From positions 34,441 through 98,440 of IMG/VR virus record IMGVR_UViG_3300047444_000577: a stretch of DNA of 64,000 nt; one strand, 5' to 3'. The position numbers were made by a program, and so were the translations under genes. Positions 14,284-49,219 of this stretch are shown piece after piece (within the stretch, counting starts at the first letter, position 1; the number at the start of each line of letters is the position of its first letter). This DNA comes from a virus. The notes below the pieces were generated by a model that was not told where the DNA came from, made no database searches, and saw nothing but the letters and a program-made list of their open reading frames with translations.

Positions 14284-15126
14284 TTAGAAACTAACGTCTT
14301 GCGTTCCCGTACTGGTAGCCAGGGCGAACTCGAACCCTTCGTGGGCCAGGGTCATCTGCTGGACGATGATCGCGTTGGCTCCGGCGTCGAGGTCGGACCA
14401 GGCTATTGCGGTCGGCCACGCGTTCCAGACGCGGAACGAGGCCTTGACCGGCGGGTTCGGAACGGTGACCGGGAAATCCAGGACGTTGATGGTGACCATC
14501 TGCCGGAACTCCGCACCGGGCTTGCCAGTTCCCGTTCCCTGGATGACGGTGAACAACTGCCGCATCCAGTCCATCATCTGCGTGTCGCCGATCGCCATGC
14601 CCTTGGACAGGGTGATCGGAGCGAAGTCGGACTGACCCATTCTGTTACCCCTCCGATTCCTCGGAGTGGGCCGATCATTTCTGTCGGCCTCTTACGCTCT
14701 CGCGCAAGATCGGAACTATATCTTGATCCCGGAGGGATCTCCCGTACATAGTCTCTGAACCTTCCCCATTTGACAGGGGCTCGGCTGCTGATTTTCCCTA
14801 CCCTGATCTTTTCGAACCATCACGCCTAGGCTTTCGCCTTACGTTGTGGTGACCAGGTCTAACAGGACGTTCCAGCAATTCTCGGGATTATCCTGCGCAA
14901 CTTACGCTGCGAGGGCCCAATCGCTCATAGGCATCTTCTGCGTGGTCGTATTCATACCGCCTTCGCGGTATGGAATGACCTCGGTCGTGACGTTGAGGCC
15001 GGACACGGACATGAAGCCCATGCGGGCGAAGCCCTTGATGTCCGGGTGCTGGATCTGCACCTGGAACTTGAAGTTGCGGAGGGGGTCCGTGGCGATGTGC
15101 CCCACGGACGGCGTGACCTTGGCCAT
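14284..15126 (-). CDS. Tail tube protein (T4 gp19-like), spliced: exons 15126-14929 and 14637-14284, 183 aa
   Basis: DPLRNFKFQV...GFMSVSGL...YREGG.NTT.QKMP joins GQSDFAPITLSKG...NAWP...DLDA to give a continuous gp19-family sequence once the intron is removed. Confidence 0.92.
14638..14928 (-). ncRNA. Group I intron (291 nt, no ORF) in the tail tube gene
   Basis: 5' exon ends in U (CCU), intron ends in G; core P AAUUGCUGGAA, Q AAUCAGCAG, R GUUCAGAGACUA, S AAGAUAUAGUUC; P1 GCCU/GGGC, P10 GAUU/GGUC. Confidence 0.93.
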
Positions 15127-22070: not shown

Positions 22071-23903
22071 TCAGTTGGTCTCGGCGATCAGGACGGCCTG
22101 GTCGGTGATGAGGCCAAGGCCCCAGATCGCGTACCAGGCGAGTGCGTGCTCTCGCATTCTGTTACCCCTCCGGTCTCCCGGAGTGGGCTGGTCATTTCTG
22201 CCAGCCTCTGCATGTCTCCATGCAGATCCGAACTATATCTTCACCCGCGTGGGGTGACCCGTACATAGTCTGTGAACCTTCCCCAGCTAAAGGGCTCGGC
22301 TGCTGATTATCCCTACCCTCAGATTTTCAAGCGTTCACGCTCAGACTTTCGTCTCACGTTGTAGCTCTGAGGTCTAGCAGGACGTCCCAGCAATTCTCGG
22401 GTTGTTCACTGACAGATTGCTCTGTCAGGCGGCCAAAGTGAAACCGAAGTCGAGGATGCCGCCGTCGCGCAGTTCCACCGGGAGGGAGATCGCGTGCCCG
22501 AAGGCGTTGTCGCCCAGGAAGATGCTCTGGTAGACCGTCTTCCCCAGTGCGTTGGTGAACTGCTTCACCTGCGTGGTCTCGATGAACACCACGTCGTTGA
22601 GGCGGCCGATCTCGCCGATCATGAACGAGCCCGGGGCCGCGTACTTGGTGACCTCGATCCACTCGGGGTCATCGCGCAACTGCCGCGACTGGTGCGGGTG
22701 GACGAACGCCACGTACGTGTCCCCCAAGCGGGGGACGTTCTTGGTGCTCAGTGTCTCGGTGGCGTCCTTGGTGAGGGCCGCCGTGAAACTGAAGGTGCCG
22801 TCCAGCAGGTCAGTGCCGGTGGCGGCGGTGCCGTGCGAGTACTGCGCCATGACGCCGAACGCGCTGGTCTGGGCGTACTTGTTGTAGCCCCAGATCTTGC
22901 TCGACGCCTGCAGGAGGGTGTCCCGCGCGGACTGGTCGAGGTAGAGCGCCATGTTTCGCGTTCTGTTACCCCTCCGGATTTCTCCGAAGTGGGCTGGTCA
23001 TTTCTGCCAGCCTCTACAGGTTTCCCTGTAGACCCGAACATCTCTTGACCCTCTCGGGTCTCCCGTGCATGTTCTGTGAACCTTCCCCAGTTAAGGGGCT
23101 CGGCTGCTGATTGTCCCTACCCTCTTCTTCTCAAACCATCGCGCTCGGGCTTTCGCCCCACGCTGTGGTGAAGAGGTCTAGCAGGATGTTCCAGCAATTC
23201 TCGGGATTTTCACTGAGAGGTTTCCCTCTCAGGCGGCCAAAGTGAGACCGAGCAGACGCGAGGCCGAGGCCATCACGTCGTCGAAGGACGCGTTGAGCAG
23301 GAGTTCGGAGACGGCGACCGCGTAGCCGTGCTCAGCCACCGTGATGGAGAACTGAGAGGCCGACAGGGCGTTGGTCTGCATCCGAACGCCTTCGACCAAC
23401 TGGGAAGCGGCTCCCAAATTGTTGTACCTCATGAAGTTGATTTGGAGACCGGGCTGAACACCCAACTCCGTCTTCTTCACGGCGAACTGCTCGACAATTC
23501 GCGATTGTTACCCGCTGGCTGCGGGGCCAAAGCATTTCTGTCTGGCTCTTGCACTTTTCCATCGTGCAAGTTCGGACTATATTTTCATCTCCAGTACCGA
23601 CCTACTGCCCATCTAAAGGCTGGAACTGTTGGAGATGCCTCGCGTGTAGTCTCTACGGAGTCCCAGATGTTGGGTTCCCTCGGTATTCCCCATTCGCCCA
23701 TTTGGAGGGGTTCACCGATACAGCGTGGTTCTCACTGACCCATCACTGGATCAGGCGGCCCGAGACCGGAGGATCGGCATGCTCTGGAACAGGATCTCCT
23801 TGGACCAGATGGTCTGGATCGCCGCACCGAGCGTGCTGTTGGCACCCGAGTAGTTCGTCGGCGAGGCCGACAGGTTCGGGGTACCGGTGATTGCACTGGG
23901 CAT
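22071..23903 (-). CDS. Major capsid protein (N4 gp56-like), four exons: 23903-23765, 23494-23247, 22958-22443, 22154-22071; 328 aa spliced
   Basis: Spliced junctions read ..MPILR-F-EQFAVKK.., ..SRLLG-RNMALYLD.., ..GGILDFG-REHALAWY..; HPHQSRQLRDD and GEIGRL..V.FIET motifs; follows the scaffold gene. Confidence 0.92.
22155..22442 (-). ncRNA. Group I intron 3 of the capsid gene (288 nt)
   Basis: UUCGGU|...AACAGAAUG|CGAGAG; P AAUUGCUGG, Q AAUCAGCAG, R GUUCACAGACUA, S AAGAUAUAGUUC; P2 stem with GCAA loop. Confidence 0.93.
22959..23246 (-). ncRNA. Group I intron 2 of the capsid gene (288 nt)
   Basis: CUCGGU|...AACAGAACG|CGAAAC; same core as intron 3 with a compensatory P7 (GAACAU/AUGUUC); P2 with GAAA loop. 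Confidence 0.93.
23495..23764 (-). ncRNA. Group I intron 1 of the capsid gene (270 nt, divergent core)
   Basis: CUCCGGU|...GCGAAUUG|UCGAG; P UAUCGGUGAA, Q AAUACCGAG, R CGUAGAGACUA, S AAAAUAUAGUCC; P10 CUCGG/UCGAG. Confidence 0.9.
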
Positions 23904-34216: not shown

Positions 34217-34543
34217 TCAGAGGTGGACGTCATAGAAATTCTCCAGGACGCAGTCAGGTACCTCGTCGAAACGCTTGGTCTCGCGGATGTGCTCTTGGCT
34301 CATGGCGTCCTCACGCCCTCGCGTCGCCGTGAGCAGAGCCTCCTCCGCCGTCCGGCCGGTTCTGCGCCAGCGGCCGAGAACTATCCCGTAGCCCCGGCCC
34401 AGGTGCACGACCAGGGATCGGGACGTTCGGTACGGCGGGTCGAGTTCTTCGGTCGACGCGGTATGAAGGAAAGGCGTTTCGGGGACCAGCCTTACCGGGT
34501 GAAAGAAGAGCGGCGTCAGTGGGATATCGCGGGCGTGTGGCAT
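34217..34543 (-). CDS. Hypothetical protein
   Basis: RBS GAGG; contains the CTTCATAC motif. Confidence 0.5.
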   Translation of the reverse strand: MPHARDIPLTPLFFHPVRLVPETPFLHTASTEELDPPYRTSRSLVVHLGRGYGIVLGRWRRTGRTAEEALLTATRGREDAMSQEHIRETKRFDEVPDCVLENFYDVHL

Positions 34544-47887: not shown

Positions 47888-47960
47888 CTCCCCGACCTGG
47901 ACTCGAACCAGGAACGCACGGATTAACAATCCGCAGCTCTGCCAATTGAGCTATCAGGGA
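47888..47960 (-). tRNA. tRNA-Asn(GTT)
   Basis: TCCCTGATAGCTCAATTGGCAGAGC..GCGGA-TTGTTAA-TCCGT..GGTTCGAGTCC..TCGGGGAG cloverleaf. Confidence 0.95.
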
Positions 47961-48328: not shown

Positions 48329-48982
48329 CTACTTCACGGTGAAGCGGCCGTACGACACGCTACGGCTCCAGGGTGCGTAGAGGCCCACTCCGCGCCCGGG
48401 GCGCTCGGCCTCCAGCCAGGTGTGGCTGTTGACGTAGATGGCGACGTGGTAGACGTAGCCGCTGGAGTCGTGGACGAACACCAGGTCGCCCGGCTTCGGG
48501 CTGCTGACGTGCTGGGCGGCCCTGTACTGGTCGTCAGCGACACGGGGGATCCGCTTGCCGAGGTGGGCGAACACGTACTGGGTGAGTCCACTGCAGTCGA
48601 AGCCGGACCGGCTTTCACCGCCCCAGACATAGCGGATCCCTCGCAAGGTCTCCGCGTAGGCGACGACCTTCGAACCCGAGGTGGGTGCCGGAGTCGGCTT
48701 GGGCTTCGGCTTGGGCTTGGGCTTCGGGGTGGTACCGCTGGACCCGGAAAGCAGAAGGCGCTCCCCGGGGTAAATGCGGTTGGGGTTGAGCAGGTGGTTG
48801 ATGGAAGCCAGGTGCTCCCAGGTGGTGTGGTGGGTGAGCGCGATTCCACTGAGGGTGTCACCGCTCCGGACAGTGGCGTACTGGGACGTGCTGGGTGCGT
48901 GTGCCTGCGCCTCCGCCGCAGGGGCAATCGGAATGACTGCCAGGGCAGCAGCCAGCGTGAGTCCTGCAATCCGCTTGTTCAT
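48329..48982 (-). CDS. Secreted LysM plus NlpC/P60 cell-wall hydrolase
   Basis: Signal peptide; TVRSGDTLSGIA LysM; PK linker; YVWGG...FDCSGL...HVAIY. Confidence 0.92.
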   Translation of the reverse strand: MNKRIAGLTLAAALAVIPIAPAAEAQAHAPSTSQYATVRSGDTLSGIALTHHTTWEHLASINHLLNPNRIYPGERLLLSGSSGTTPKPKPKPKPKPTPAPTSGSKVVAYAETLRGIRYVWGGESRSGFDCSGLTQYVFAHLGKRIPRVADDQYRAAQHVSSPKPGDLVFVHDSSGYVYHVAIYVNSHTWLEAERPGRGVGLYAPWSRSVSYGRFTVK

Positions 48983-48991
48983 GAGAGCACT

Positions 48992-49108
48992 CCTGCGCCT
49001 GCGAGATTAGGTGACGGGCTCGGGAAAGTGCGCTCCCTACCGCTAAATACTCGGATTCGCCCCAGTGCTGCGTTTCGGTCTCCCGCCCCTGCTCGGGGTT
49101 GATTACAG
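48992..49108 (-). promoter_or_regulatory. ydaO/yuaA-type c-di-AMP riboswitch
   Basis: AGGGGCGGGAGACC...TGGGGCGAATC...GTAGGG...TTTCCCGAGCCCGTCACCTAA, ending at the hydrolase RBS. Confidence 0.75.
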
Positions 49109-49145
49109 AGTTTGTCCAGGAGCAGGGTTCGGCGTCTGGACAAAG

Positions 49146-49219
49146 TCGGGATGACAGGAATCGAACCTGCGACTTTCCGCTCCCAAAGCGGACGCTCTAC
49201 CAAGCTGAGCTACATCCCG
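49146..49219 (-). tRNA. tRNA-Pro(TGG)
   Basis: CGGGATGTAGCTCAGCTTGGTAGAGC..TCCGC-TTTGGGA-GCGGA..GGTTCGATTCC..CATCCCGA. Confidence 0.95.

Follow-up and report, generated by a model that had tools for sequence, protein, structure and literature searches.

Landthaler and Shub are said to have reported in 1999 that orf142 of the Staphylococcus phage Twort carries three group I introns. An intron in the capsid gene of the lactococcal phage Tuc2009 is cited in the work of Pope et al. (2013; PMC3706429). Both systems are similar to the one considered here in that small self-splicing introns, often without endonuclease genes, are situated in late or structural phage genes, and differ from it in their hosts and in the intron subgroups.

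The closest described introns are those of cluster J mycobacteriophages, where group I introns were found in the capsid gene (LittleE) and in the minor tail gene (BAKA/Optimus); the capsid and tail introns have 156 bp in common at 98% identity, the tail intron is 265 bp long and has no endonuclease, and splicing was demonstrated by RT-PCR (Pope et al. 2013, PMC3706429). Cluster J is a direct precedent for the occurrence of one intron lineage in unrelated late genes of actinophages (PMC3706429). Like the family described below, its introns are located in late structural genes of actinophages, both capsid and tail, are preceded by U, end in G and are patchily distributed among close relatives (PMC3706429). 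Unlike here, however, the hosts are siphoviruses and the tail gene concerned encodes a minor tail protein, whereas the present case is that of a myophage and its tail tube; moreover, the relationships between guides and targets were outside the cluster J analysis (PMC3706429). No Mycobacterium phage match to the tube-intron region was obtained in BLAST searches, and only capsid intron 1 of the genome studied resembles the cluster J introns.

Ectopic spread of group I introns by reverse splicing at matches of 4–6 guide bases is a hypothesis without direct proof, the best circumstantial support for which comes from rDNA (PMC3984707). The rDNA case and the present one both involve related introns without an endonuclease gene at different sites that share only at least 4–6 guide-complementary bases (PMC3984707), but here the sites are located in two phage genes that encode unrelated proteins, namely at the capsid Ala/Trp and tube Pro/Gly codon pairs (a slash marks the insertion point). 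In the literature searched, no report was found of an intron in a tail tube gene or of this intron family in Streptomyces phages, and the BLAST collection contained no cultured phage carrying this intron.

The interrupted tube gene and its ribozyme

The window, that is the whole stretch of DNA analysed, comprises 64,000 nucleotides (positions 34,441 to 98,440 of the IMG/VR record IMGVR_UViG_3300047444_000577); the genome is the full record of 98,440 bp, with an estimated completeness of 99%. The host of the intron is an uncultivated BRock/GiJojo-like myophage of the Streptomyces type. Its nearest cultured relatives, the Streptomyces phages GiJojo and BRock, have uninterrupted tube genes and the same gene order, in which the tube gene follows that of the sheath. 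The features of the locus are collected in Table 1.

Table 1. Positions of the tube gene, its intron and the related capsid sites in the window
Feature	Position	Strand	Details	Basis
Tube group I intron	14638..14928	-	291 nt, no ORF	RF00028, 54.3 bits
Terminal G (omega G) of tube intron	14638..14638	-	23/23 curated family members end in G	sequence
Internal guide sequence	14915..14922	-	GAUU-GGGC, intron nt 7-14	script and sequence
P2 hairpin	14892..14914	-	GUAA loop	family alignment, fold, module identities
Catalytic core	14712..14887	-	P3, P4, P5 with branched P5a-c extension, P6, P7 (pseudoknot), P8	RNAalifold and pair counts
Peripheral 3′ helices	14651..14708	-	P9, P9.1, P9.2	alignment, pair counts, fold
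Tube exon 1	14929..15126	-	66 aa, ATG at 15126, ends ...QKMP with U at 14929	translation, PF06841 positions 1-45
Tube exon 2	14284..14637	-	117 aa and stop, begins GQSDF	translation, PF06841 positions 47-134
Second, unoccupied GCCUGGUC in tube exon 2	14396..14403	-	Ala-Trp-Ser, identical to filled target	site census
Capsid intron 1	23495..23764	-	270 nt, site ILR F/EQF	RF00028, 38.5 bits (below cut-off), exon mapping
Capsid intron 2	22959..23246	-	288 nt, site LLG/RN, guide UUUG-GCCG	RF00028
Capsid intron 3	22155..22442	-	288 nt, site DFG/RE, guide UUUG-GCCG	RF00028
Empty capsid Ala/Trp site in capsid exon 4	22133..22139	-	GCCU/GGUA (...HALA/WY...)	site census

The group I intron that the original prediction had placed in the tube gene is real and has the limits proposed for it. 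The Rfam model RF00028 matches positions 14691–14977 of the minus strand above the cut-off, with 54.3 bits against a gathering score of 50 (E = 5e-11 in the scan of the window and 1.9e-14 in that of the genome). This match overruns into exon 1 at its 5′ end and stops short of P9.1/P9.2 at its 3′ end, and therefore the true limits were taken from homologues; compared with GiJojo and BRock by BLAST, the tube gene of the window contains 291 extra bases. The intron starts with ATGAGCGATTGGGCCC at 14928, following an exon that ends in ...CAG AAG ATG CCT, and terminates in ...GGGGTAACAGAATG, after which exon 2 opens with GGT CAG TCC. These limits fit the rule of a U before the intron and a G at its end; with limits shifted by one base the protein is unchanged and the rule is broken. 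The P3–P9 core, the U.G pair at the 5′ splice site and the terminal G are shared with RF00028 group I introns, and all three core motifs quoted in the prediction are present.

If left unspliced, exon 1 would continue into an in-frame stop after eight intron codons, giving a product of 74 amino acids only. Removal of the intron, as expected, restores the ..QKMP-GQSDF.. of a gp19-type tube protein: the joined exons encode 183 amino acids that can be aligned without gaps to GiJojo gp81 and BRock gp137 across ...YREGGMNTTTQKMPGQSDFAPITLS... and, at ...TTTQKMP/GQSDF..., to about 135 intronless homologues. A single Phage_T4_gp19 domain (PF06841, cut-off 28.2 bits) is split over both exons, its two parts scoring 38.5 bits in exon 1 and 52.9 bits in exon 2. 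The two exons are directly adjacent (gap 0) in all 55 close IMG/VR relatives and in 79 of the 80 tube genes of a wider set. The 24-mer of the spliced junction, CAGAAGATGCCTGGTCAGTCCGAC, is absent from the DNA, and it may be inferred from the sequence that the intron is spliced out to give the 183-aa tube protein.

A recombination breakpoint in the tube gene at the position of the intron was considered and rejected, since a 100-nt sliding profile shows no step at the junction. The identity to relatives is the highest on both flanks of the junction, so that the intron interrupts the most conserved stretch of the gene; overall, nucleotide identity is 82–90% in exon 1 and 78–80% in exon 2, and exon 1 is 74–95% identical to intronless relatives at the amino acid level.

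A profile search of IMG/VR contigs yielded more than 50 near-full-length relatives of the intron among the matches listed; 23 introns were curated with exact limits, and 20 members of the family were included in a structural alignment. From this alignment RNAalifold recovered P2, P3, P4, P5 with a branched extension, P6, P8, P9, P9.1 and P9.2. With P7 added as a pseudoknot, the consensus consists of 81 pairs, in which 98.2% of the cells are paired, and compensatory changes on both sides were found in 44 of the 81 pairs, P7 included. None of 500 shuffles reached the observed values, and controls with slid alignments gave 29–42%. The tube copy forms 78 of the 81 consensus pairs, two non-forming pairs at the base of P2 are accounted for by a bulge or register shift of one base, and its fold has a z-score of −5.4. 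A pairing of 3 bp between guide columns 10–12 and columns 307–309, also proposed by RNAalifold, was dropped as unsupported by the known architecture. Of the features by which group I subgroups are told apart, the intron lacks P7.1/P7.2 and has a branched P5 extension. The element GGAGGGGUAACAG of the peripheral 3′ helices is present in capsid introns 2 and 3 and throughout the family.

No intron-encoded endonuclease ORF was found within the 291 nt of the tube intron, and HNH, HNH_3, GIY-YIG and LAGLIDADG_3 had no match in the whole genome. Among nucleases of the homing type, the genome yielded only a free-standing Endonuclease_7 ORF of 163 aa (G000:C1:9819-10055, minus strand), which lies outside the window. 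A homing endonuclease adjoining the tube intron was looked for and not found; this ORF is about 39 kb away from the tube gene.

The tube intron had been counted as the fourth group I intron, and the genome does contain exactly four RF00028 matches, three of them over the cut-off, all within a single late operon region. The core of capsid intron 1 diverges from those of the other three, and in BLAST this intron showed about 70% identity over a stretch of 211 nt to one without an ORF that interrupts the minor tail gene of cluster J mycobacteriophages (Baka, Optimus and others). From nt 40 or so onwards, the tube intron shows 80% identity to capsid intron 2 and 78% to capsid intron 3; in the first 42 columns the identity to these two is 33–53%, varying with the way gaps are counted. 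Unless such introns are removed, the tube and capsid genes of this phage and its relatives will be miscalled as fragments.

Guide pairing and the occupancy of target sites

The pairings proposed for the guides were confirmed by script. The tube guide GAUU-GGGC fits its own exons GCCU/GGUC, with P1 formed by GCCU and GGGC (4 bp plus one intron pair, U.G at the splice site) and P10 by GAUU and GGUC (4 bp). The guide UUUG-GCCG of capsid introns 2 and 3 fits CGGU/CGA, GCCG pairing with CGGU and UUUG with CGA(A/G); placed on the tube site, the same guide pairs by 1 bp only. Capsid introns 2 and 3 have an identical guide and sites that share TCGGT/CGA; across the family, most capsid sites end in GGU before the insertion point and are matched by a guide with conserved GCC(G).

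P1 would form in the late transcript by pairing of the guide GGGC with the last exon bases GCCU, including the U.G wobble. An external guanosine held in P7 would then attack after U14929, GAUU would align the 3′ exon GGUC as P10, and the freed exon end would attack after G14638, so that CCU and GGU are joined in the mRNA for the 183-aa protein.

The guide of the tube intron is of a type that is also present in related capsid introns of other phages. The capsid Ala/Trp site (...HALA/WY..., exon GCCU/GGUA), which is empty in the genome studied, is filled by at least eight introns in other contigs; these introns begin with AUGAGAACUGGGCCCUCGCAGCG... and have the same guide and the same P2, capped by GUAA or GUGA, as the tube intron. 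The marks of this "GGGC-guide" subfamily, all of them present in the tube intron, are a guide xxUGGGC, a GUAA/GUGA-capped CUCGCNGCG-type P2 and a target GCCU/GGU. Over the first 42 profile columns, which comprise the P1–P2 module, the identity of the tube intron is 74–83% to the Ala/Trp-site introns and to an intron at the tube site of another phage (L067), as against about 51–53% to capsid introns 2 and 3, a signal that rests on about 40 columns; the P2 module itself is common to the capsid Ala/Trp-site introns and the tube introns of L067 and L375.

The tube guide pairs with the capsid Ala/Trp site by 4 + 3 bp, and every guide of the Ala/Trp-site introns pairs with the tube site by 4 bp in P1 and 3–8 bp in P10. 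The tube target was thus matched in advance, and no retargeting was needed. Judging by these sequences, tuning of P10 at the tube site looks limited to one position (A to G) at most. Two of the capsid Ala/Trp-site introns have P10 guides that fit the tube 3′ exon GGUCAG better than their own exon: CUGACU in L095 (5663–5962, minus strand), with 8 bp versus 3 bp, and AUGACU in L086 (6122–6428, plus strand), with 5 bp versus 3 bp. This hints at a possible exchange between the tube and capsid sites.

Of the tube genes compared, only those of this genome and of the L067/L375 lineage, a distant prophage lineage, have the site filled (0 of the 55 close relatives and 1 of the 80 genes of the wider set are occupied). 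In L067, a 94.8-kb UViG, the same site contains a 298-nt intron with the guide UUGACU-GGGC, which is about 80% identical to that of the window, with only 56% identity of the tube protein. A close relative of the L067 intron is found at the tube site in the chromosome of Streptomyces diastatochromogenes ATCC 21481 (L375, 480–777, plus strand), where exon 2 is out of frame after ...GQSDFSPVTLSRG, because either the prophage has decayed or the assembly contains an indel error. When the pattern ATGCCT-N(6-12)-TGGGCCCTYGCNGCG was used to look for additional introns at the tube site, L067 was the sole match in IMG/VR; 20 metagenome matches to this pattern were discarded as chance coding sequence with no tube context.

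Relatives of L067 at 85–90% identity have the empty site ATGCCT/GGTCAG. In the clade of the window, CCT GGT is present in just 3 of the 55 intronless alleles, and the others have CCC, CCG or CCA and are consequently without the U that P1 needs. Close relatives provide both empty and filled alleles, most of the empty ones lacking the required U at a synonymous position. Twelve other GCCUGGU sites on the same strand of the window are empty, including the one in tube exon 2 (Table 1), so the heptamer alone is insufficient to set insertion.

Origin of the tube intron

In a full-length tree of 20 introns, a split with the support of 96/99 separates the tube introns, L063 and the Ala/Trp-site introns from the rest, and capsid introns 2 and 3 of the window fall outside this GGGC-guide side. 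The tube intron had been regarded as a paralogue of introns 2 and 3, but a clade of these three is rejected by the AU test both at full length (p = 8.8e-7) and on the core, columns 43–318 (p = 0.005). In the tree of the core alone, the tube intron does not group with most Ala/Trp-site introns, a single GGGC-type clade is neither recovered nor rejected (AU p = 0.09), and the two tube lineages, that of the window and that of L067/L375, are not sisters (p-AU 0.04). The core of the tube intron is nearly equidistant from many family members (75–82% identity), and its nearest neighbour switches from one structural module to another. The attempt to name a donor from the core-only phylogeny was abandoned, since this phylogeny is poorly resolved and mosaic and no donor can be named; however, the empty Ala/Trp site in the capsid gene of the same genome indicates that the donor is not in this genome.

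Summarizing these data, we consider, with a probability of about 80%, that an ORF-less group I intron of the GGGC type moved ectopically to a pre-matched site in the tube gene and then underwent mosaic recombination. Its source would be a widespread, recombining family of introns of about 290 nt, mostly located in actinophage capsid genes, in which the module of the GGGC guide and P2 would have its usual home at the capsid Ala/Trp codon pair GCCU/GGUA. The tube Pro/Gly site GCCU/GGUC has seven bases in common with that site, and a GGGC-type intron may have colonised it as a matching ectopic site in a co-expressed late gene. After colonisation, the intron would have spread among tube genes, or been retained in them, in a patchy manner, with a later reshuffling of its core with other family members. 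The direction from capsid to tube is inferred from relative abundance only. The earlier idea that one lineage moved between unrelated late genes holds to the extent that the tube intron is of the same family as introns 2 and 3 and that this family occupies unrelated late genes; re-adaptation of the guide has to give way to a guide of another subfamily that was already matched to the target.

A module swap, by which the core came to the tube site, or was replaced there, through recombination and a ready-made P1–P2 cassette was exchanged, is possible but on the doubtful side. It would agree with the different nearest neighbours of the core and of P1–P2, with the clustering of introns from the same genome, and with the intron L038, in which, according to an alignment judged by eye, an Ala/Trp-type P1–P2 is joined to a P5 segment like that of intron 3 of the window. 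Against it, the segments are short and a cassette must first sit at the tube site, so that such swaps explain the later mosaicism and not the initial colonisation.

Spread at the RNA level, by which an intron from the abundant capsid mRNA would reverse-splice into another abundant late mRNA at a match of about seven bases to its guide (GCCU/GGU at both the capsid Ala/Trp and the tube Pro/Gly site) and then become fixed in DNA, is a tentative and rather unlikely proposal. If it is true, actinophages offer a natural and testable system for guide-directed ectopic transposition in protein-coding genes. The locus is a natural example of two unrelated essential genes that contain introns with the same guide at sites sharing only the guide-complementary heptamer. 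It lends circumstantial support to the idea that ectopic sites are chosen by the guide, and is a tractable system for testing it.

Copying of capsid intron 2 or 3 into the tube gene, followed by mutation of the guide from UUUG-GCCG to GAUU-GGGC, as in the original prediction, is very improbable. The identity of 78–80% over nt 40–291 and the position of all four introns in one late operon region speak for it, but introns 2 and 3 are not the nearest neighbour of the tube intron in any structural module, the three-intron clade is rejected as stated above, and the guide and P2 are of another, pre-existing type that is found at the capsid Ala/Trp site. Furthermore, an intermediate whose guide pairs by 1 bp would not splice from an essential gene and would thus be lethal.

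It is hardly credible that the intron is not spliced and that two polypeptides are translated separately, or that the gene is dead in a defective genome: exon 2 can be read in frame from an ATG at 14640, 7 nt after a GGAGG-like run, but this run, GGAGGGG, though it looks like a ribosome-binding site, forms the conserved 3′ strand of P9.2 and is present also in introns without ATG, and the ATG is not conserved (the introns of L067 and L375 end in ...CUCUG and ...AUCUG, and capsid intron 2 in AACG), so the split-gene reading was rejected; in addition, the ribozyme core is intact and covarying, the split falls within the most conserved part of one gp19 domain, and the completeness estimate argues against a defective genome.

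The wider family and other observations

Among the matches listed, the family is large, structurally covarying and mostly found in capsid genes of actinophage contigs. Two introns located at different capsid sites of the same genome (L111:9727-10023 and L111:10796-11116) cluster together at 100% support, which suggests within-genome homogenisation or recent duplication. In two other members, L025:9137-9799 (minus strand) and L034:2041-2730 (plus strand), an additional segment of about 0.7 kb, which separates the part with P8 from that with P9, encodes Endonuclease_7 (PF02945); in L034 this ORF runs antisense to the intron.

The 17-mer core motif AATCAGCAGCCGAGCCC was rejected as a marker of the family, since it is also present in tRNA-type and other introns from many phyla, and membership was decided by the full-length nhmmer profile instead. 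Introns that contain this motif and lie inside or adjoin tRNA-like sequences include L287, L312, L328, L342, L356 and others, from Omnitrophota, Planctomycetia and other MAGs. To judge from such matches, the P4–P6 core is shared far beyond the phage family.

Another structured RNA of the window is a c-di-AMP (ydaO-type) riboswitch aptamer, with 62.5 bits against a cut-off of 38, which is located directly 3′ of a tRNA gene (48981–49144 and 49146–49219, both on the minus strand). A second tRNA is found at 47888–47960.
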